Assembly: GCA_024233865.1 (NCBI GenBank)
Contig: JACKPA010000012.1
Span: 192,001 to 204,607, forward strand
Direction of reading: 5' to 3'
Source of the DNA: Leptospiraceae bacterium
Lineage (GTDB): Bacteria > Spirochaetota > Leptospiria > Leptospirales > Leptospiraceae
Length of the DNA stretch: 12,607 nucleotides
The notes beneath the pieces were generated by a model. That model made no database searches, was not told the DNA's origin, and saw only the letters and a program-made list of their open reading frames with translations. Within the stretch, counting starts at the first letter, position 1, and every line of letters begins with the position of its first letter. Made by a program: the position numbers and the translations under genes. Positions 1,813 through 12,541 of the stretch are shown one piece after another.

Positions 1813-3282
1813 TTATTGTTTAGAGCTAACGGCAAGGTACATGGAAACTGCTTCGTAAATAACGGTTTGTAAGGGATTCGAGTTTTCGATTTTTGAGTTT
1901 CCCTTTCCGTGTTCATATACTACGCTAAGGTTAAAAGACGCGCTAGGTAGATTCCAAGATATTCCCAAACAATAACCTATTGTATTGATATACTCACCTC
2001 TGGATTTTTCTCCGAATAACTCTCCTATTTGAGGTACATACAAAATGGAAACCTGTTGATTTGAGGTGTTAGCGAGGTTTAAAATAGAATCTTCGCCAAA
2101 ATTACTAATAGAATTTATGAGCAAGGTATCTGCCCATTTTATTTTTTTTGTATTTGCCCTATTTGTAAAAACGCCACCTCGTAAAGAAAGTGTTTCTTTA
2201 GGAAAATATTCCAAGCCAAAAGCGAGGTTCAGAGTAGGTGACCTGTAAAGCTCACTATTCTCATTTTCTGTTAAGATAACGTGTTTTATGGATGATCCGG
2301 AATAAAAGTATCTGGTCTGATCTTGTGAGCGTCTATATCCGTCAGTGTAAACTGTATCAAAAGCCATTAAAAATTTAGAATTTGGAAACCAGGCAATTCC
2401 TATTCTATATTCATTTATTTTTGGGGTCTCTGCCGAAAAAACAGGGCCCGAAAACCCGAGACTATCGTTAATTTTTCCGCCGCTACCACTCTGACTTCCT
2501 TGCATTACGGCAACTCCGTCTTGTGAAGTATTGCTTGTGCTTACAATAAATGAATTTTGGTACCTTTTTCCTCTACTGCTTGGCATAGTTCGACTTACAC
2601 TAAATCCAAGAGATACTTTGGGGCGGATTGCATACAATAAACCAAAAATAGGGTAGATACCATTGGTAGTTCTATCATCCCTCGATGTCTGTACTAATCC
2701 GGTATCCGAAGTTCTGAATAAACTACTTGAGGCTAAATATTCGATATCCCTAAACATATATAGAGAACCACCAATAGAAAGCTTGGGAGTTAGAAGCATT
2801 GATAAGCTCGGACCCAGTAATATTTGGTTTGTTTCACTTGTTTCTTGACGTATTGCATCTTTTACATCCGGAAAGTATAGTGAAAGGTTTAGTTGCTCAT
2901 ATCTTCTGGAACTTTGGCTGATTTTATTGACTAGGGAAAGCCCGAACTTATATTTCCCAAAAGACTTGATAGAGCCTATAAAATTTGGTGAAAAATTATT
3001 CAAATTTTCAACTAAGTTTTGTCCCGGTCCCCATATATCCTGGTAGGTTTTTTGTACGCTATTGTAGCTAAAAATGGACATGGAAATGGAATCATCATAA
3101 GAAAAAGAAAGACCGGCAGGATTGTAATACGTTCCGGATGGATCATCGGAAATAGCTGTAAATGCTCCTCCCATTCCCGTAGCTCGTTCTCCAAAAAATC
3201 CGTTGATGTTGTGAAATCCATCAGCATAAGAGCCGGCTAGTGCCAAGAAAAACAAAATTGTTATATTTATTTTTTTATACAT
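1813..3282 (-). CDS. outer-membrane beta-barrel transport protein, OMPP1/FadL/TodX family (long-chain fatty acid / hydrophobic compound channel)
   Basis: 489 aa with an N-terminal signal peptide (MYKKINITILFFLALAGSYADG). The mature N-terminus carries the family hallmark FGERATGMGGAFTAISDDPSGTYYNPAGLSF (the G..GGAf.A.aDDasa.yyNPAGL motif that forms the hatch domain). The rest is rich in alternating aromatic/small residues typical of a beta-barrel. Confidence 0.6.
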   Translation of the reverse strand: MYKKINITILFFLALAGSYADGFHNINGFFGERATGMGGAFTAISDDPSGTYYNPAGLSFSYDDSISMSIFSYNSVQKTYQDIWGPGQNLVENLNNFSPNFIGSIKSFGKYKFGLSLVNKISQSSRRYEQLNLSLYFPDVKDAIRQETSETNQILLGPSLSMLLTPKLSIGGSLYMFRDIEYLASSSLFRTSDTGLVQTSRDDRTTNGIYPIFGLLYAIRPKVSLGFSVSRTMPSSRGKRYQNSFIVSTSNTSQDGVAVMQGSQSGSGGKINDSLGFSGPVFSAETPKINEYRIGIAWFPNSKFLMAFDTVYTDGYRRSQDQTRYFYSGSSIKHVILTENENSELYRSPTLNLAFGLEYFPKETLSLRGGVFTNRANTKKIKWADTLLINSISNFGEDSILNLANTSNQQVSILYVPQIGELFGEKSRGEYINTIGYCLGISWNLPSASFNLSVVYEHGKGNSKIENSNPLQTVIYEAVSMYLAVSSKQ

Positions 3283-3647: not shown

Positions 3648-4571
3648 CTACTTTTCTCGAATGTTTAAAGTCAACTGCCTCACATCATAATTTCCACCCA
3701 CTTTTTGCAGAGACAAACGAACTCCTTTTGTTCCTTTCCAACTTCCACCAACAATTCCTTGGTACATTCCGTTTTTTCCCAAAGATACCGTTTCTTTTTG
3801 TGGTAATACAACCGGTTTTTCAGAAGCAATAACCACTATCTTGTCATATCCTTCCGGTGGGGCAGCCAGTAATTTGTATTTTCCGGGAGCGTTTTCTGGC
3901 GGGAATTTTAATTCCGTATTGCTGGGAACTCGATTGTCGCTTTGGTATTTATTGGGAAAAACTTGCACAATTGCACCGTCCATAGTGTAAACAAGAATGG
4001 TGACATACACTTCTTTTATTTTAGATGTAATTGTGTATTCTATCTCGATAGGTTCTCCGAATTTAACCCCTTCGTTTTCTAACTCTGCATTAGAGAATAC
4101 TTCCATTAACTCTATTTCGGTTTTTTTATTCGGTGATTTTAGATTGATTAGTTGTATCAAGCTTGCTTCTACTTCCAAAATATTCAAGAGTTCCGATACA
4201 TTTTTTTCCGTATAACTTTCCCAAGCACCAAGAATACGGGTCGTTTCGACTTGAACTAATTTGAAAGAAGTTGACTTATGGTTGTCAAACAAAACGATAT
4301 AATATGCACCTAGCGTTTTGCCGATTTTGGGACCATCTTTTACCAAGCCTGATTGTTCTAAATTGCTTTCTTTTAGCAATTTGTTGAGCTGCTTTCTCTC
4401 CACCGGTTGTGCAAAATCGGTTTTAAGTAATTTTCCCTCTATTGCAGTCATGAATTTGGAAGAACCACCGGCAACCGCTATCATTAGTTTGCCGTTTATT
4501 AACTGGGGGAACGCCGATAAGTTTAGCGGGAATTGTAAAATGAAAATAACTAAAAAAACAAAAATTCTCAT
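3648..4571 (-). CDS. secreted hypothetical protein; N-terminal CsgG-like motif region plus C-terminal DUF4384-like domain
   Basis: 307 aa with a cleavable signal peptide (MRIFVFLVIFILQFPLNLSA) and no lipobox cysteine. N-terminal region: LMIAVAGGSSKFMTAIEGKLLKTDFAQPVERKQLNKLLKESNLEQSGLVKDGPKIGKTLGAYYIV, resembling the CsgG-family signature ER..L..L.E..L..SG.V....IGK.LGA.Y. C-terminal region: KEVYVTILVYTMDGAIVQVFPNKYQSDNRV..KYKLLAAPPEGYDKIVVIAS, resembling DUF4384 (conserved ..DG.i..lFPN.. core). Both family assignments are from memory. Confidence 0.45.
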   Translation of the reverse strand: MRIFVFLVIFILQFPLNLSAFPQLINGKLMIAVAGGSSKFMTAIEGKLLKTDFAQPVERKQLNKLLKESNLEQSGLVKDGPKIGKTLGAYYIVLFDNHKSTSFKLVQVETTRILGAWESYTEKNVSELLNILEVEASLIQLINLKSPNKKTEIELMEVFSNAELENEGVKFGEPIEIEYTITSKIKEVYVTILVYTMDGAIVQVFPNKYQSDNRVPSNTELKFPPENAPGKYKLLAAPPEGYDKIVVIASEKPVVLPQKETVSLGKNGMYQGIVGGSWKGTKGVRLSLQKVGGNYDVRQLTLNIREK

Positions 4572-6280: not shown

Positions 6281-6433
6281 CTGTTAGACCATGGTGCAGG
6301 AATAGAATTAATCCACTACTTGTTTTTGTTAAAGCCATTAATTTACGCCTAAAACAGACTACGGAGTCGATCCCTTTCTAGCTTGTTTCCAAACAACTTT
6401 CAAATTTACAAAACTATTTATTGGAGATATAAA

Positions 6434-6751
6434 ATGAACATATATGTAGGAAACCTTTCTCACTCTACAACAGAGGACACCTTAAGTAAATCTTTTGGAG
6501 TTTATGGTGCTGTTGAATCAGTAAAAATCATCACAGATAAATACAGCGGACAGCCTAGAGGTTTTGCCTTTGTTGAAATGGCTAACAAAAGCGAGTCTCG
6601 TAAGGCAATCCAAGAGTTAAACGAAACTGAGCTAGATGGCAGACAAATTAAAGTGAATGAAGCGAAACCAAGAGAAAACCGAAGAGACTTTAATAGTGGC
6701 GGTGGTGGTAGTGGCGGCGGCGGTCATCGTCGTAACAACAATCGTTGGTAA
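6434..6751 (+). CDS. RRM-domain glycine-rich RNA-binding protein (Rbp-type, about 105 aa)
   Basis: MNIYVGNLSHSTTEDTLSKSFGVYGAVESVKIITDKYSGQPRGFAFVEMANKSESRKAIQELNETELDGRQIKVNEAKPRE contains RNP2 (IYVGNL) and RNP1 (RGFAFVEM), followed by a GGGGSGGGGHRRNNNRW tail. A GGAG Shine-Dalgarno sequence lies 8 nt upstream of the ATG at 6434. The longer ORF-track start at 6383 has no ribosome-binding site and adds a non-conserved extension. Confidence 0.85.
   Translation: MNIYVGNLSHSTTEDTLSKSFGVYGAVESVKIITDKYSGQPRGFAFVEMANKSESRKAIQELNETELDGRQIKVNEAKPRENRRDFNSGGGGSGGGGHRRNNNRW
6698..6724 (+). repeat. in-frame GGY/AGT simple-sequence tract encoding the GGGGSGGGG tail of the RNA-binding protein
   Basis: ggc ggt ggt ggt agt ggc ggc ggc ggt is a low-complexity triplet repeat inside the CDS. 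Confidence 0.5.
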
Positions 6752-6832
6752 AATTTTACCAAAACACTCCCTTGGTGTCTTCTGCTTGAGCGAAGTCTAA
6801 GGGAGCCAAAGGTTGTTTTTTTATACCCCTAC

Positions 6833-6861
6833 AAGGCAGCACCTCTTGGCTGCCTTTTTAA
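6833..6861 (+). terminator. rho-independent terminator of the RNA-binding protein gene
   Basis: Perfect GC-rich stem aaggcagc (6833-6840) / gctgcctt (6849-6856) with an 8-nt loop, followed directly by a tttttaat T-run. A second, looser hairpin (ctccctt 6765-6771 / aagggag 6799-6805, followed by ggttgttttttt) lies between the stop codon and this terminator. Confidence 0.6.
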
Positions 6862-7041
6862 TAAGCTAAATACAATTCGGAATTGAATATTTCCATAATA
6901 GATGTCCTTGCTTTATTTGAATGTTAAGATTTGTATCCCTTGACTATTCTAATCGAATAAAAAAAACTTAAAATAAAAAATTAATTTATCTTTTCTATTC
7001 CTAAAAAATTAATACTTTTAGCATTAACTTTGGAAGGTTTT

Positions 7042-7542
7042 ATGAAATACTTTTTGTTATTTATATCATTTAGCTTGTGCTTTTTGACAGTTCCTATGTT
7101 GGCAGAAACCAAATTCATTGTAGGTTGGGCTGAAAAAGTGAAGATTTTTCCTGGCAATTTTACCGTAAAAGCCAGAATTGATACGGGAGCAAAAACCTCG
7201 TCTATAAATACTCCTTTTTATGAAACATTCGAAAAAGATGGAAAAACTTGGGTGCGTTTTGATTTTATGGATAAAAAAGGGAAAAAAAAGACCATAGAAA
7301 AAGAAGTCCTAAGAACTTCAAAAATTAAAAGAAAAGGTATGAAGTCCGAAGAGCGTCCGGTTGTAAAATTGGAAATATGCCTTGGTAATGTTTATAAAGA
7401 GTCTGAAGTAAATCTTGTGGATAGAAGTAATTTTAATTATCAGATTCTGATAGGAAGGAGTTATTTGGAAAATGATTTTCTGGTAGATTCTTCCAGCCGG
7501 TTTACAAAAAAACCGAATTGTAAAATTCCGGGGAAAAAATGA
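7042..7542 (+). CDS. secreted retropepsin-like aspartic protease (the 'putative ATP-dependent zinc protease' / DUF785 family that accompanies RimK-like ATP-grasp genes)
   Basis: Signal peptide MKYFLLFISFSLCFLTVPMLA, then KFIVGWAEKVKIFPGNFTVKARIDTGAKTSSIN containing the aspartic-protease D-T-G-A motif (D at nt 7180-7182). Size (about 165 aa) and position immediately upstream of the 7TM-transglutaminase and ATP-grasp genes match the known three-gene arrangement. The alternative TTG start at 7030 (ORF track) is less likely than the ATG at 7042, which follows ggaagg. Confidence 0.65.
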   Translation: MKYFLLFISFSLCFLTVPMLAETKFIVGWAEKVKIFPGNFTVKARIDTGAKTSSINTPFYETFEKDGKTWVRFDFMDKKGKKKTIEKEVLRTSKIKRKGMKSEERPVVKLEICLGNVYKESEVNLVDRSNFNYQILIGRSYLENDFLVDSSSRFTKKPNCKIPGKK

Positions 7543-9077
7543 AAAATTTTCATCTTTTTTTCCTTTGCTTTTTTTTGATTGCAATTGGTTTTGGCTTATT
7601 TTTTTACAAATATTCCTACCTTGATTTTCCTATAGTTCCTAACAGTATTGTGGAAGTATGGAATTTGGAGATCAAAATTCGGTTTGAAACAGAAAAGCAG
7701 TCGGTTAAAGTCAGGCTGAATATCCCCAAAAATACGCAAAGGTATACAATTACTTCCGAATCTTTTGTTTCGGGAAGTTTTGGCTTGGTGACGGACATAA
7801 GTAAAGGCAATCGAAGAGCGATATGGTCAATTCGTAAAAGCAGCGGAATAAAAAATTTGTACTACAGAGCTGTCATTCAAAAAAGAGGAAAACCTAGAAA
7901 AGAGGTTCCAACAGAAGCAGAAATAACCGAACATAGATTGGATGATGCACAAAAACTAGCTGCTCAAAATATAATAACTGCCATATATACCAAATCTGCT
8001 GATATGGATACAATGATTTCTGAGCTTTTTCAGCGACTCAATAAGGAAGAACCGGATGAAAACGTGTTGGTTCTTTTAGGAAAGGAGTCAACAGCAGAAC
8101 AGAAAGTAAAAATGGCAGTTCGAATTCTTGCTTTGGCGAAAATTCCTGCTCGTGTGGTTTATGGAATTGATCTGAAGGAACAAAGGGGTTTGAAACAATT
8201 GCGTACTTGGCTAGAAGTATACTTTGATAAAACATGGAGAGCTTATTTACCAAAAACAAGGCTTCCGGAAATTCCGGAAAATTACTTTAGCTTGTATAAG
8301 GGTAACTATCCTTTGGTAAAGCTTAAAGGTGGAGATAAATTGCGATTTGTTATATCGGTAAGTCCGAACCAAGAAGAAGCAATCAAAAAAGCAGTAGAGC
8401 ATGGGAGAATTCATTCTCCTAATTTCTTAAAATTTTTATCTTTGTTCGGACTTCCTATTCAAACACAATCCTTGTATAGAGTCATATTGCTTATACCTAT
8501 TGGCGTTTTTTTGGTTGTGCTGCTTCGAAATGTTATTGGGCTAAAAACCTTTGGAACTTTTATGCCTGTTCTTATTGCACTCTCGTTTCGTGAAACCCAA
8601 CTTTTATGGGGGATTTTTTGGTTTGTTACACTAATTGGTCTTGGAGTTTTGTTTCGGTTTTATTTGGAAAATTTAAAACTCCTCCTTGTGCCACGTTTGG
8701 CATCGGTTCTTATTGTGGTTGTCTTACTAATGTTGATGCTAAACGTCTTTACACAAAATCTTGGTTTGGAGCTTGGATTATCCATTGCACTGTTTCCAAT
8801 GGTGATTTTGACAATGACTATCGAAAGGATGTCTATAGTTTGGGAAGAACGCGGAGTTAAAGAAGCATTGCAGCAGGGAGCTGGTACATTAGTTGTTGCC
8901 ATTGTAGCCTATCTCATTATAACAAATCAATTTGTTGGTCATATCGTTTTTGTTTTTCCGGAAGTTCTTTTGGTATTTTTAGCGTTCACAATACTGCTTG
9001 GTCGATATACAGGTTATCGTCTTTCTGAAATTGGTCGCTTCAAGTCTTTGATTGCAAAAGAGAATGGTAAAATATAA
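7539..9077 (+). CDS. membrane protein: N-terminal anchor helix, inactive transglutaminase-like domain, C-terminal 7-transmembrane domain (Transglut_i_TM / 7TM_transglut architecture; 'UUP1-family'-type)
   Basis: 512 aa. One N-terminal helix (FHLFFLCFFLIAIGFGLFFY). The central region carries a transglutaminase-like core ...LGKESTAEQKVKMAVRILALAKIPARVVYG..., in which the catalytic Cys of the G.C..fA...RA.GIPAR motif is replaced (TAEQ), hence predicted inactive. The C-terminal ~200 aa form about 7 hydrophobic helices (GVFLVVLLRNVIGLKTFGTFMPVLIALSF...). The start overlaps the protease stop (ATGA, 7539-7542). Confidence 0.7.
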   Translation: MKNFHLFFLCFFLIAIGFGLFFYKYSYLDFPIVPNSIVEVWNLEIKIRFETEKQSVKVRLNIPKNTQRYTITSESFVSGSFGLVTDISKGNRRAIWSIRKSSGIKNLYYRAVIQKRGKPRKEVPTEAEITEHRLDDAQKLAAQNIITAIYTKSADMDTMISELFQRLNKEEPDENVLVLLGKESTAEQKVKMAVRILALAKIPARVVYGIDLKEQRGLKQLRTWLEVYFDKTWRAYLPKTRLPEIPENYFSLYKGNYPLVKLKGGDKLRFVISVSPNQEEAIKKAVEHGRIHSPNFLKFLSLFGLPIQTQSLYRVILLIPIGVFLVVLLRNVIGLKTFGTFMPVLIALSFRETQLLWGIFWFVTLIGLGVLFRFYLENLKLLLVPRLASVLIVVVLLMLMLNVFTQNLGLELGLSIALFPMVILTMTIERMSIVWEERGVKEALQQGAGTLVVAIVAYLIITNQFVGHIVFVFPEVLLVFLAFTILLGRYTGYRLSEIGRFKSLIAKENGKI

Positions 9078-10019
9078 ATGTTTGTAACGTTATCAAAGCT
9101 CGTTCAAAAAAAGGTTCTTGGCATTAACCAACGCAACGCTGACTATATACTCAAATACAATCCCCGTCCTTTATATCCTCTTGTGGATGATAAGTTACTC
9201 ACAAAGAAATTGGCAATAGAAGCTGGTATGAATGTACCACAACTCTATGGTGTAATTGAAGTGCAGCACCAAAGGCGAGAGTTGGCAACCTTATTAAACA
9301 AACATTCTGATTTTGTGATCAAGCCAGCTTGTGGGAGTGGGGGAAATGGAATTTTAGTTATCCAAGAAAACAAAAAAGACAAGTACCGTAAACCAAATGG
9401 GATGTTTTTAACCGAAGTAGATCTTAAATTCCATGTATCCAATATTATAAGCGGAATGTACAGTTTAGGGGGGCATCCGGACAAGGCGATTATTGAATAT
9501 CGCATCCAACCTGATCCTGTTTTTGAGTCAATTAGCTACCAAGGTGTTCCTGATATTCGAATCATAGTATTTTTAGGAGTTCCCGTTATGTCTATGGTAC
9601 GTCTTCCCACCTTTATGTCAGACGGAAAAGCAAACCTTCATCAAGGGGCAATAGGAGCAGGCATAGATATAGGCACAGGCAAAACTCTATCAGCTGTCTA
9701 TTTTGATGAAATCATTTATGAGCATCCTAACACTGGAAATTCGGTTGTAGGGATTCAAATTCCCGAATGGGATAAATTTTTAAATCTTGCCACTCGTTGT
9801 TATGAGTTGACCGGGCTTGGATACCAAGGAGTAGACATTGTTCTGGATAAAAACTATGGACCAATGATCCTTGAGCTCAATGCTCGTCCCGGACTCAATA
9901 TTCAAATTGCCAATAATGTGGGGTTATTAGAACGTCTCGAAATTGTTGAAAAGAATTGGAAAGATTTGAAATCGGCTTCGGAACGGATCGATTTTGCCAA
10001 AAAGCATTTTAAGGTGTAA
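9078..10019 (+). CDS. alpha-L-glutamate ligase-like ATP-grasp protein (RimK-related peptide/amino-acid ligase)
   Basis: 313 aa. N-terminal LGINQRNADYILKYNPRPLYPLVDDKLLTKKLAIEAGMNVPQLYG is the characteristic start of the RimK-related 'alpha-L-glutamate ligase-like' family. ATP-grasp features follow (KPACGSGGNGILVI; C-terminal YQGVDIVLDKNYGPMILELNARPGLNIQIAN, the Mg/ATP-binding D...E.N segment). The ATG at 9078 abuts the TAA of the upstream gene (9075-9077). Confidence 0.75.
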   Translation: MFVTLSKLVQKKVLGINQRNADYILKYNPRPLYPLVDDKLLTKKLAIEAGMNVPQLYGVIEVQHQRRELATLLNKHSDFVIKPACGSGGNGILVIQENKKDKYRKPNGMFLTEVDLKFHVSNIISGMYSLGGHPDKAIIEYRIQPDPVFESISYQGVPDIRIIVFLGVPVMSMVRLPTFMSDGKANLHQGAIGAGIDIGTGKTLSAVYFDEIIYEHPNTGNSVVGIQIPEWDKFLNLATRCYELTGLGYQGVDIVLDKNYGPMILELNARPGLNIQIANNVGLLERLEIVEKNWKDLKSASERIDFAKKHFKV

Positions 10020-10111
10020 GAAAATGTTTTCAAAAAGCTTGTATTTTCTTAGGTATTTGTAGAATATACTCACGGCTGGGGTCCCTACAAAAAAAAACAA
10101 ATAAAAACAAC

Positions 10112-12541
10112 ATGGATAAATGCTACCACTGTCAGACACCATTAAGTCCCCAAACGACCTATAAAGGTTCTATAAAGGGTGAAGAAAAACTCTTTTGTTG
10201 TAATGGATGCAAAACCGTTGCTGAGTTCATTTCCTTATCAGGAAATGAGAAATTTTACGATTTAAGAGGCTCTGTTTCTTTAGAGCCGGCTACTAGCATT
10301 CAAACATCCATAGATGAAAACCTGGATAGCGAATATACTTATAACGAATTTGTAACCGGAGTTGATCCTACAAAGCGGGAAGTTTTTGTCAATATTACAA
10401 ATATTCATTGTTCTGCTTGTGTATGGTTAAATGAAAAAGTTCTCTCCCAAACAGAAGGTATAAAGGGTATTCGGATTAATTTTGCCAATTCGAGAGCTCA
10501 TATCGTATGGGATGATACAATTCTTAAACTATCTAAAATTTTTACCATTATACAAGGAATTGGTTACAAACCCGTTTTATATGCTCCTTGGAAAAAAGAA
10601 AACCAAAACAGCCAGTTTGAAATAGACTTACTCATGCGATTGGGGGTTGCTGGGTTCTGTTTTGGAAATATTATGCTCTTTGGAGTGGCACTGTACACCG
10701 GTTATTTTAGTGGGATAGAAATTGGATTTAAAAAGCTCTTGCACTACGCTTCCTGGATTATGGCAACTCCAGCTTACTTATACTCTGGAATGCCTTTTTT
10801 AAGAGGAGCTTACTATGGGATCAAAAATAAATCCGTCACAATGGACTTGCTTCTAGTTTTAGGTGTCAGCTTAGCCTATTTTTATAGTGTTTACGTAACA
10901 CTTACGGATAGAGGAGAAGTCTATTTTGATTCTGTTTGTATGATATATTTTTTTATACTAATCGGAAAATACTTTGAAGCAAGGTCGAGAAATTCGGCAA
11001 GTCGAAAGGTACAAACCTTGCTGAGTAAGCTACCGGATATTGTAAGTCTCATCCAAGATGGTAAAGAGACAAAAATCTTGTCTCACCAAATACAAGTTGG
11101 TGAGACCATTATGATTTCTCCAGGAGAGCGGATCCCGATTGATGGAAATTTGCTACAAGGAGAAGTAAGTATTGACGAATCTTTTTTAACGGGAGAGTCC
11201 AAACCTGTTTTGAAACAAACCGGAATGATGTTACTTGCCGGTTCCATTAACTTGGACAAAAACTTATATATGCAAGCGACATCTACTTCCAAAGACTCCA
11301 ATCTGGCAAGGATCCAAAAAATGGTTGACGGAGCACTATTTGAAAAACCAAAAGTCCAACTGATTTTGGATAGGATTTCTTCTTATTTTATTTTGGTAGT
11401 TTTGTCTGTTTCCCTTTTGGTCTTTTTTTCATGGTTTTTTTACGGTGCAGGTTTTGAAACGGCTTTGCTCAATTCTATATCCGTTCTTATCATTGCCTGC
11501 CCCTGTGCTTTAGGTTTAGCTGTTCCAACAGCAATAGTTATGAACCATTTGGTTAGCTCCGAAAAAGGAATTTTAATTAAAAATGCGAGCGTTATTGAGG
11601 CATTGTCCAAGCCTAATTACCTAATATTTGATAAGACAGGAACTCTAACAGAGGGTAAGCTAAAGGTTATTAAAGATGAACTTGTCCAAGATAAAGTTAC
11701 GTTGGAATTGCTTTTAATGGTAGAATATGGCTCAAAACATCCTATAGCCAAGTCCATTCAAAATTATTTGTTAAGTCGGAATGTTAGTTATAATCCTTCC
11801 GAAGATGTTAGAATACAGATAGAAGAAAAGTCCGGTTTTGGTCTTGAAGGAGAAATTTGGAAAAACGATATATGCTACTTTGTGAAAGTAGGCAAACTTC
11901 ACTTTGTTTCAAACGATACCCAAGAAGATACAACAAATGAAATCGGAACGAGAATTCACGTTTCCATTAACGAAAGTTATAAAGGCTATTTGGTTTTGCG
12001 GGACACAATCAGAAAAGAAGCCAAAGAAGAAATCGAGTTGTTAAAAAAGCAATTAGATGGCATCATCATTTTATCCGGAGATGATTTGTCTGTTGTAAAA
12101 GAGGTTTCCAATCAATTGGATATCGAAACATTCTATCATGGGATGACTCCCAAGCAGAAATTGGAGCAAATAGAACGTTTGCAGCTGGAAGGAAAAAAAG
12201 TTATCACTGTTGGAGATGGTTTGAACGATGCCGGAATGTTAGCCAAATCCGATGCCGGTATTTCCATGCAGTTAGGAGCTGATATAACAATCGATAGAGC
12301 CGATATAATACTAATGAACAACCACCTTTCGGGAGTGAGGAGACTCTTTTTTTATTCTCAAAAAACTATGTCCGTGATTCGAGATAATATAATTATTTCA
12401 TTGATTTATAATTCGATTGCCATTCCATTGGCGGCATTCGGATTTTTAATTCCCATTATATGTGCTTTGTTTATGACTTTGAGTTCTCTTACTGTTGTCT
12501 CCAATTCTTTATTGATAAAATTCAGAACGCGGAAAATGTAG
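10112..12541 (+). CDS. heavy-metal (Cu+-type) translocating P1B-type ATPase with a FixI/CcoI-style N-terminal zinc-ribbon and one HMA-like domain
   Basis: 809 aa. N-terminus CYHCQTPL...LFCCNGCKTVAEFI (Cx2C...CCxGC, as in FixI/CcoI-type copper ATPases). An HMA-like domain has HCSAC in place of the usual MxCxxC (ITNIHCSACVWLNEKVLSQTEGIKGIRINF). Eight hydrophobic helices include the CPC metal-binding motif (IIACPCALG, about nt 11498-11506). Further motifs: TGES (LTGESKPV), DKTGTLT phosphorylation site (about nt 11630-11650), HP motif (GSKHPIAKSI), GDGLNDAGML hinge. Confidence 0.9.
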   Translation: MDKCYHCQTPLSPQTTYKGSIKGEEKLFCCNGCKTVAEFISLSGNEKFYDLRGSVSLEPATSIQTSIDENLDSEYTYNEFVTGVDPTKREVFVNITNIHCSACVWLNEKVLSQTEGIKGIRINFANSRAHIVWDDTILKLSKIFTIIQGIGYKPVLYAPWKKENQNSQFEIDLLMRLGVAGFCFGNIMLFGVALYTGYFSGIEIGFKKLLHYASWIMATPAYLYSGMPFLRGAYYGIKNKSVTMDLLLVLGVSLAYFYSVYVTLTDRGEVYFDSVCMIYFFILIGKYFEARSRNSASRKVQTLLSKLPDIVSLIQDGKETKILSHQIQVGETIMISPGERIPIDGNLLQGEVSIDESFLTGESKPVLKQTGMMLLAGSINLDKNLYMQATSTSKDSNLARIQKMVDGALFEKPKVQLILDRISSYFILVVLSVSLLVFFSWFFYGAGFETALLNSISVLIIACPCALGLAVPTAIVMNHLVSSEKGILIKNASVIEALSKPNYLIFDKTGTLTEGKLKVIKDELVQDKVTLELLLMVEYGSKHPIAKSIQNYLLSRNVSYNPSEDVRIQIEEKSGFGLEGEIWKNDICYFVKVGKLHFVSNDTQEDTTNEIGTRIHVSINESYKGYLVLRDTIRKEAKEEIELLKKQLDGIIILSGDDLSVVKEVSNQLDIETFYHGMTPKQKLEQIERLQLEGKKVITVGDGLNDAGMLAKSDAGISMQLGADITIDRADIILMNNHLSGVRRLFFYSQKTMSVIRDNIIISLIYNSIAIPLAAFGFLIPIICALFMTLSSLTVVSNSLLIKFRTRKM

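Follow-up and report, generated by a model that had tools for sequence, protein, structure and literature searches.

We describe a three-gene locus at positions 7042 to 10019 of a 12,607-nucleotide stretch of DNA (the window; contig JACKPA010000012.1 of assembly GCA_024233865.1, positions 192,001 to 204,607 of the forward strand) that is very probably orthologous to the rloABC operon; it comes from an uncultured bacterium of the Leptospiraceae (Spirochaetota). The genes encode, in this order, a retropepsin-like aspartic peptidase predicted to be secreted (RloA), an inner-membrane protein made of an inactive transglutaminase-like domain and a seven-transmembrane (7TM) domain (RloB), and a RimK-related ATP-grasp amidoligase (RloC). 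The operon has been named and partly characterised in Pseudomonas aeruginosa (Lormand et al., mBio 2025, PMC12239564), and the window copy is a divergent, non-proteobacterial member of this already named type. An earlier note on this DNA held that the association was known only from comparative genomics and lacked biochemical characterisation; this is out of date, as the paper provides structures, cleavage of glutamate runs (polyE), phenotypes and epistasis. The note also took the product and the substrate of the module to be open, and the authors of PMC12239564 say likewise of the RloA substrate, the activity of RloC and the role of RloB. A search of the literature available to the analysis returned no later paper defining the product of RloC or the function of RloB.

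Based on profile searches, the three proteins belong to the families found in the published operon. RloA matched Pfam PF05618 (1.7e-36), RloB matched PF14400 (Transglut_i_TM, 1.2e-43) together with PF14402 (7TM_transglut, 3.1e-97), and RloC matched TIGR02291 (475 bits, cut-off 314) and PF14397 (8e-96). The scores were far better on Rlo-type than on Rim-type models: RloA gave 123 bits with NCBIfam RloA3, 115 with RloA and 114 with RloA2 against 54 with RimB, and the 475 bits of RloC with TIGR02291 compare with 41 bits for rimK_fam TIGR00768, whose cut-off is 143. The P. aeruginosa locus (PA14_41690/41710/41730 = PA1768-PA1766) has the same three families as the window, in the same order and with tight junctions. 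The likeness extends to the signal peptide, the DTGA motif, the disulfide cysteines and the polyE-binding arginines of RloA, to the Transglut_i_TM and 7TM_transglut domains of RloB and to the placement of RloC in TIGR02291. The two loci differ in that the window host is a Leptospiraceae metagenome-assembled genome and not a gammaproteobacterium, that the flap of the window RloA falls short of that in the crystallised Pseudomonas enzymes by about 8-10 residues, and that in the window RloB the His and Asp retained by many family members are gone as well. NCBIfam already holds models named RloA, RloA2, RloA3 and RloB; these are narrow equivalog or exception models, and judged by sequence the window RloA and RloB appear to belong to the broader Rlo-type family and not to the named Pseudomonas-type subfamilies.

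The gene boundaries are listed in Table 1. The ORF list and a direct reading of the sequence agree exactly with the coordinates that the earlier note had assigned to the three genes and with both of its junctions, the ATGA in which the stop codon of rloA overlaps the start codon of rloB and the TAA/ATG at which rloB abuts rloC. This geometry suggests that rloABC is one translationally coupled unit. The rloA reading frame opens with a TTG at 7030; a GGAAGG at 7032-7037 stands before the ATG at 7042, and the product deposited at NCBI, of 166 aa, matches a start at this ATG. Scans of positions 6300-10400 for sigma-70 promoters and terminators gave counts no better than those of shuffled controls, and no operon boundary signal was assigned. 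The terminator scan flagged, on both strands, a near-perfect palindrome, TTCCGGAAATTCCGGAA, at 8263-8279 within the rloB coding sequence, which is probably there by chance. An Rfam scan of 6300-10300 at E values up to 0.1 gave no match, and thus no leader or riboswitch of a known kind. In a composition profile the module (33-39% GC) does not differ from its flanks and hence shows no sign of recent transfer.

The three genes are also kept together in other genomes, as the earlier note had expected of a true module. The RloB family has more than 6,700 matches. For the comparison of neighbourhoods a set of 83 loci was fetched, consisting of the best 80 of more than 588 one-genome-per-species loci and of three metagenome contigs (L001-L003). 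These contigs contain the closest RloB relative (64% identical) and the same three genes with the same 4-nucleotide overlap and 0-nucleotide gap, in entirely different flanks. The homology search topped at this identity, even though the exact RloB is deposited, because the window protein sits in a 90% protein cluster represented by a 171-aa fragment. The best 80 loci come from Desulfobacterota, Nitrospirota, Bdellovibrionota/Oligoflexia, Planctomycetota (Kuenenia), Dadabacteria, SAR324 and alpha-, beta- and gammaproteobacteria. RloC was encoded directly 3' of RloB, on the same strand, in 83 of the 83 fetched loci, and when metagenome loci were fetched by the RloC profile, RloB was encoded directly 5' of RloC in 69 of the 70 that were informative. 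RloA was encoded directly 5' of RloB in about 70 of the 83 fetched loci (about 85%). It was absent within 4 kb in nine others (L016, L033, L044, L059, L068, L070, L079, L080 and L082), which include the Kuenenia locus and several Steroidobacter loci, and in one (L062) its gene lies 1.5 kb upstream on the opposite strand. Among the 53 RloC-anchored metagenome loci with enough sequence, RloA was found upstream in 42 and after rloC in two, which thus have the order B-C-A (protease gene at about 5017-5421 in L095 and about 4917-5339 in L100). The A-B junction is an overlap of 4 or 8 nucleotides in 43 of 71 loci (4 in 30 of them and 8 in 13) and in 47 of 83 loci rloB and rloC abut or overlap; at both boundaries, genes that overlap or abut are the most frequent arrangement. 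When the ORFs flanking the module were clustered, every other family was confined to at most 7 of 82 loci, and hence there is no fourth conserved gene. RloB and RloC thus form a reciprocal and nearly obligate pair that RloA often, though not always, accompanies, an arrangement that fits a module in which B and C make a product and A trims it. We also searched upstream of rloA for a small Glu-rich ORF that could be a candidate precursor peptide and found none; together with the absence of a conserved extra gene in the 82 loci, this makes a precursor of the kind seen for ribosomally synthesised and post-translationally modified peptides unlikely in cis. The earlier note had named three findings that would speak against the module: proteins falling outside these families, a ligase devoid of its ATP- and Mg-binding residues, and a lack of synteny. 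What was found is family membership for all three proteins, a conserved order of the three genes, and, as described below, a ligase with these residues in place.

Concerning RloA, the earlier note proposed a secreted protease of the retropepsin fold, and the PF05618 match, the DTGA motif and the N-terminal hydrophobic segment all bear this out. The segment covers residues 3-21 (Kyte-Doolittle 2.1) and is the single one in the whole protein; K2 provides the n-region, and signal-peptide cleavage is predicted after residue 21 at an A-x-A-like site (...PMLA/ETK). For RloA, DTG with an Ala after it has been cited as the retropepsin signature (PMC12239564), and D47, G49 and A50 of the window motif are conserved in at least 97% of 71 orthologues. 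Two RloA proteins have been crystallised, and both form pseudosymmetric dimers in which the substrate channel is basic; in vitro RloA cuts reporters with 8 or 10 consecutive Glu and not those with six or fewer, and the substitutions R114A and R137A abolish both cleavage and complementation (PMC12239564). In a search of the Protein Data Bank (PDB), the window RloA matched 9g58 and 9g59 at E values of about 1e-23, followed by 2pma. The first two entries would be the RloA-type structures of PMC12239564, namely P. fluorescens RloA and P. aeruginosa RloA2. By way of these crystallised orthologues, and not of a direct alignment to P. aeruginosa RloA, R105 and R128 of the window protein match the polyE-binding R114 and R137; the offset of -9 in the numbering agrees with the shorter flap in the alignment to 9g58. 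Both arginines are conserved in at least 97% of the 71 orthologues, as is C113, whereas C160 is conserved in 85-97%. The two cysteines correspond to the periplasmic disulfide pair, which has been reported for periplasmic members only and which, with the signal peptide, sets RloA apart from RimB (PMC12239564). The predicted signal peptide and the periplasmic cysteines thus point to an exported RloA. The predicted mature protein is strongly basic (charge +13, pI 9.8), and the pI is above 8 in 85% of the orthologues.

RloC has neither a transmembrane segment nor a signal peptide. The ATP-grasp residues are conserved among 78 orthologues: K82-P83, the G86/G89/G91 loop, E140-Y141, D159/R161 and the stretch K184-A-N-L-H-Q-G-A. 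D253, E266 and N268 (9834-9836, 9873-9875 and 9879-9881) align with D248, E260 and N262 of the RimK structure 7qys. This alignment and the score above the TIGR02291 cut-off confirm the earlier assignment of the ligase as a RimK-like ATP-grasp enzyme with its Mg- and ATP-binding residues intact.

The membrane protein had likewise been read correctly as a fusion of a dead transglutaminase-like domain to a 7TM domain (PF14400 and PF14402). An AlphaFold2 model built from 50 homologues (pLDDT 78.5, pTM 0.57) shows four regions. An N-terminal transmembrane helix comes first, then a beta-sandwich plus alpha/beta domain reaching to around residue 300; a bundle of membrane helices follows, and an amphipathic helix forms the C-terminus. 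At the positions equivalent to the Cys-His-Asp triad the window RloB has T185/A186 (at the N-terminus of helix 186-199), T223 and L237, so that all three residues are missing. Across the family the His and the Asp are retained in only about 40-70% of members, and the nucleophile Cys occurs in none of 132 aligned rows (two overlapping RloB alignments, of 50 and 82 sequences), which indicates that the domain is truly inactive as a cysteine enzyme. Accordingly, the transglutaminase core model PF01841 reached 20.8 bits on RloB, under its cut-off of 23. Active transglutaminase-like proteins such as P. aeruginosa TgpA (PDB 6g4h) and the Cytophaga protein 3isr differ from the window RloB in its absent triad (T/A, T, L) and in the transmembrane module to which they are fused, and no examined member of the RloB family has the Cys.

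The basic C-terminal tail of RloB and the odd number of transmembrane helices that follow the soluble domain suggest that this domain is periplasmic, in agreement with the published prediction (PMC12239564). In the window protein it is basic (+15, pI 9.8), although its charge ranges from -16 to +18 in the family and it is the less conserved half of RloB. The membrane domain is the best-conserved part, with the motifs TFGTFMP, IERMSxVWEE, FPE and GRYxGYRLxExxRF, eight invariant arginines (R330, R351, R373, R386 and R430 among the invariant ones), and buried-type Arg/Glu pairs among its invariant residues. A sequence search of the PDB with RloB found no relative, and the 7TM domain gave weak fold matches only; this arginine-rich domain might share its fold with the ion-translocating membrane subunits of Rnf, Nqr and Mtr. 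We also observed a motif, S153-A154-D155 (7995-8003), located between two helices of the periplasmic domain, that is invariant in 50 of 50 and in 80-82 of 82 sequences. The positions of the relic triad, in contrast, are variable. The S-A-D motif may be the place where the 'inactive' domain in fact functions.

The genetics available for P. aeruginosa give these observations a direction. A mutant lacking the three secreted retropepsin-like peptidases RloA, RloA2 and RloA3 dies in salt-free medium and has biofilm, beta-lactam and cell-shape defects; rloA itself shares its operon with rloB, for the inactive transglutaminase-7TM protein, and with rloC, for the ATP-grasp enzyme, and deletion of either rloB or rloC rescues the osmotic defect of the triple mutant fully and the other defects partly (PMC12239564). 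This suppression of the lethality of rloA loss is the key published evidence on the mechanism and would be expected if RloA removes a product of RloB and RloC. In the circuit that we propose, RloC would act in the cytoplasm, where ATP-driven stepwise addition of amino acids would yield an anionic chain, most probably poly-alpha-L-glutamate, either free or on an acceptor. RloB, with its eight transmembrane helices, conserved arginines, basic cytoplasmic tail and dead periplasmic domain, would move this product across or into the inner membrane and hold or present it on the periplasmic side. RloA, exported by Sec, dimeric, stapled by its disulfide and provided with a basic channel, would then cut runs of at least eight Glu and so prevent the product from building up. 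The relationship of RloC to RimK and the strict polyE specificity of its operon partner RloA make poly-alpha-glutamate the probable product; we infer this chemistry, as well as transport by RloB and a physical contact between RloB and RloC. The evidence gathered here in support of the circuit consists of the B-C pairing, the intact active sites of RloA and RloC, the predicted compartments, the invariant membrane arginines of RloB and the basic character of RloA and of the periplasmic domain of the window RloB. The envelope phenotypes reported independently for homologues, in Shewanella and for PA1766-PA1768 (see below), also speak for it. The topology suggested in the earlier note, in which a product is made in the cytoplasm, passed through or recognised by the 7TM protein and processed outside by the protease, is the model that best fits the published genetics. 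As to the specifics of synthesis, export and trimming of polyE by rloABC, we regard the case for them as evenly balanced. With distinctly less confidence, we suggest that RloB-RloC could be an unrecognised synthase-exporter pair for periplasmic poly-alpha-glutamate or another polyanionic peptide, with RloA as its dedicated periplasmic depolymerase and the 7TM domain of RloB as a new class of polyanion conduit.

A similar logic is known from the CapBCA/PgsBCA systems of Gram-positive bacteria, in which an amide ligase facing the cytoplasm works with membrane components that extrude an anionic poly-Glu chain and with a hydrolase that trims it outside. The resemblance to rloABC is one of analogy only, as the families are unrelated: PgsB is of the Mur-ligase type and RloC an ATP-grasp enzyme, and the depolymerase is of the gamma-glutamyltransferase type and RloA a retropepsin. 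The linkage also differs, being gamma in CapBCA/PgsBCA, whereas the published substrates of RloA are alpha-linked, genetically encoded Glu runs.

Several points weigh against the proposed circuit and against a close identity of the window locus with the published one. PolyE cleavage, the role in osmotic and envelope stress and the epistasis are known for P. aeruginosa only, and the window locus is known from sequence alone. RloA scored below the cut-offs of the NCBIfam models RloA, RloA2 and RloA3 (NF052262-4; 114-123 bits against 210-280) and RloB below that of its own model NF052267 (424 bits against 900). Such scores below narrow cut-offs indicate distant orthologues whose specificity could differ, and the shortened flap of RloA belongs with these differences. 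The classification of RloC by Pfam as a 'sugar-transfer associated ATP-grasp' (PF14397) leaves room for an acceptor other than polyE. The 7TM domain, without a solved relative and with weak fold matches, makes RloB as an 'exporter' a conjecture. RloA is missing in cis from about 10-20% of loci, and the authors of the P. aeruginosa work found no genome-encoded candidate for its physiological substrate (PMC12239564).

We weighed other explanations against the polyE circuit. The one that survives best is that RloC, in place of making free polyglutamate, ligates amino acids onto a specific precursor of the envelope. This could be a sugar linked to a lipid, an intermediate of peptidoglycan or exopolysaccharide, or a membrane protein; RloB would be the flippase or scaffold for the tagged molecule, and RloA would remove or trim the tag outside. 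Here the PF14397 family, the best Pfam match of RloC, would be to the point, and the published phenotypes (cell shape, beta-lactam sensitivity, biofilm and vesicles) do implicate the cell wall and exopolysaccharide: Shewanella releases more membrane vesicles when its RloB homologue hm2192 is disrupted, and a suppressor screen concerned with exopolysaccharide hit PA1766-PA1768. The authors of PMC12239564 moreover mention, as possibilities, substrates that are polyglutamylated after translation and a part in the homeostasis of peptidoglycan. Yet the clustering of flanking ORFs showed no glycosyltransferase or other envelope-biosynthesis gene conserved beside the module, and any such tag would still have to be a long polyE chain because RloA requires at least eight consecutive Glu. 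We give this explanation a minor but appreciable probability.

According to a second alternative, RloB would be a receptor whose dead domain binds a periplasmic or extracellular anionic ligand and whose 7TM domain relays the signal to RloC; RloA would set the level of the ligand, and the product of RloC would stay in the cytoplasm. Inactive enzyme domains fused to multi-transmembrane modules are a common receptor architecture, the basic charge of the window RloB periplasmic domain would suit an anionic ligand, and in Vibrio cholerae the operon is controlled by the cell-wall-stress system VxrAB (PMC12239564). However, the putative ligand-binding domain is precisely the less conserved half of RloB and its charge changes sign across the family, whereas the invariant residues, including the buried-type Arg/Glu pairs, lie in the membrane domain and suit a transporter better than a relay. 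Signalling also explains poorly why cells that lose a protease of the periplasm die only if they have the ligase in the cytoplasm, and we judge it improbable.

A third alternative, that the locus is a system for polyglutamylation of ribosomal protein S6 (RpsF) of the RimABK/RimBK type known from Pseudomonas and, for RimK, from Escherichia coli, is effectively refuted and retains very little probability. In both systems a ligase of the ATP-grasp alpha-L-glutamate-ligase type is paired with a polyglutamate-cleaving, retropepsin-like protease. RloC is a homologue of RimK and RloA one of RimB, the Mg-binding D/E/N residues of RimK align with those of the window RloC, and RloA cleaves RpsF-8E in vitro (PMC12239564). 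But the Rim system is entirely cytoplasmic, acts on RpsF and lacks a membrane partner, whereas the window protease has a predicted signal peptide and the periplasmic disulfide cysteines and is encoded next to RloB, a membrane protein that is an obligatory partner. With both rimK_fam and RimB NF052261 the scores of the window proteins stay under the cut-offs (54 against 200 bits for the latter), and in P. aeruginosa deletion of rimB showed no interaction with deletions of rloA (PMC12239564). Finally, a coincidental adjacency of three unrelated genes, for which nothing was found, is refuted to a negligible residue by the near-invariant B-C pairing in at least eight phyla, amid unrelated flanks and with conserved overlapping junctions, and by the published genetic epistasis.

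Table 1. Features of the rloABC locus and of its surroundings in the window
Feature	Coordinates	Strand	Remarks
rloA, secreted retropepsin-like aspartic peptidase (predicted), 166 aa	7042-7542	+	NCBI MCB1190573.1 'ATP-dependent zinc protease'
RloA signal peptide (predicted), aa 1-21, MKYFLLFISFSLCFLTVPMLA/ETK	7042-7104	+	Hydrophobic segment, A-x-A-like end
RloA catalytic motif D47-T48-G49-A50, codons GAT ACG GGA GCA	7180-7191	+	Retropepsin motif
rloA/rloB stop/start overlap ATGA, 4 nt	7539-7542	+	Direct reading of the sequence
rloB, inner-membrane protein, 512 aa	7539-9077	+	NCBI MCB1190572.1 'inactive transglutaminase family protein'
RloB transglutaminase-like domain (predicted periplasmic), catalytically dead, aa 28-300	7620-8438	+	
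RloB 7TM domain and basic C-terminal tail, aa 301-512	8439-9074	+	
rloB/rloC abutment TAA/ATG, 0-nt gap	9075-9080	+	Direct reading of the sequence
rloC, cytoplasmic RimK-related ATP-grasp amidoligase, 313 aa	9078-10019	+	NCBI MCB1190571.1 'alpha-L-glutamate ligase-like protein'
AT-rich intergenic region 5' of rloA, 290 nt between the stop of the RRM gene and the rloA start; presumed promoter and 5' UTR (untranslated region)	6752-7041	+	
Small RRM-type RNA-binding protein, Gly/Arg/Asn-rich tail	6383-6751	+	NF058537 'RNA-binding regulator', 109 bits
Copper-type P1B ATPase (CopA-type), N-terminal ATPase-cat_bd domain	10112-12541	+	92 nt 3' of rloC
489-aa protein, no Pfam match	1813-3282	-	Weak N-terminal PorV/PorQ-like match (39 bits, below cut-off)
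DUF4384 protein, weak CsgG-like N-terminus	3648-4571	-	

The genes around the module have other affinities (Table 1). The CopA-type ATPase downstream of rloC was considered as a fourth member of the module and rejected: the gene of its closest relative (70% identical, in the loci L164 and L165) precedes a FixS/CcoS gene, without rlo genes in the vicinity, and no orthologous rlo locus shares this neighbour. The ATPase is 100% identical to a protein of a Leptospiraceae metagenome-assembled genome, and an exact look-up placed the window on JAGRNI010000022.1 of GCA_020440835.1. The RRM-type protein upstream is called by NCBI as a product of 105 aa that starts at an internal ATG. The two proteins encoded on the minus strand are possible outer-membrane or lipoprotein components.

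As an orthologue of a published operon, the locus itself adds little that is new. Its wider setting is more informative. According to PMC12239564, 96% of RloB matches are in Proteobacteria. A published idea is that the operon arose from rim genes as an advantage for Gammaproteobacteria. That Spirochaetota and no fewer than seven further lineages share the gene order and the overlapping junctions of rloABC means that the operon is not essentially gammaproteobacterial and bears on that idea of its origin. The survey also sharpens the genetic model, with RloB and RloC as a reciprocal pair and RloA as a detachable member that is sometimes absent in cis or placed after rloC. The Leptospiraceae version, small, basic and fully devoid of the triad, is a useful minimal member of the family, and the invariant residues of RloB, namely the S-A-D motif and the eight arginines of the membrane domain, offer specific points of attack for mutagenesis and biochemical work. 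Among the groups that have the module are Spirochaetota, Nitrospirota, Desulfobacterota, Bdellovibrionota, Planctomycetota and Pseudomonadota; if RloB-RloC were indeed a synthase-exporter pair, poly-alpha-glutamate in the periplasm would be widespread in diderm bacteria as a polymer of the envelope or of osmoprotection that has so far escaped notice.

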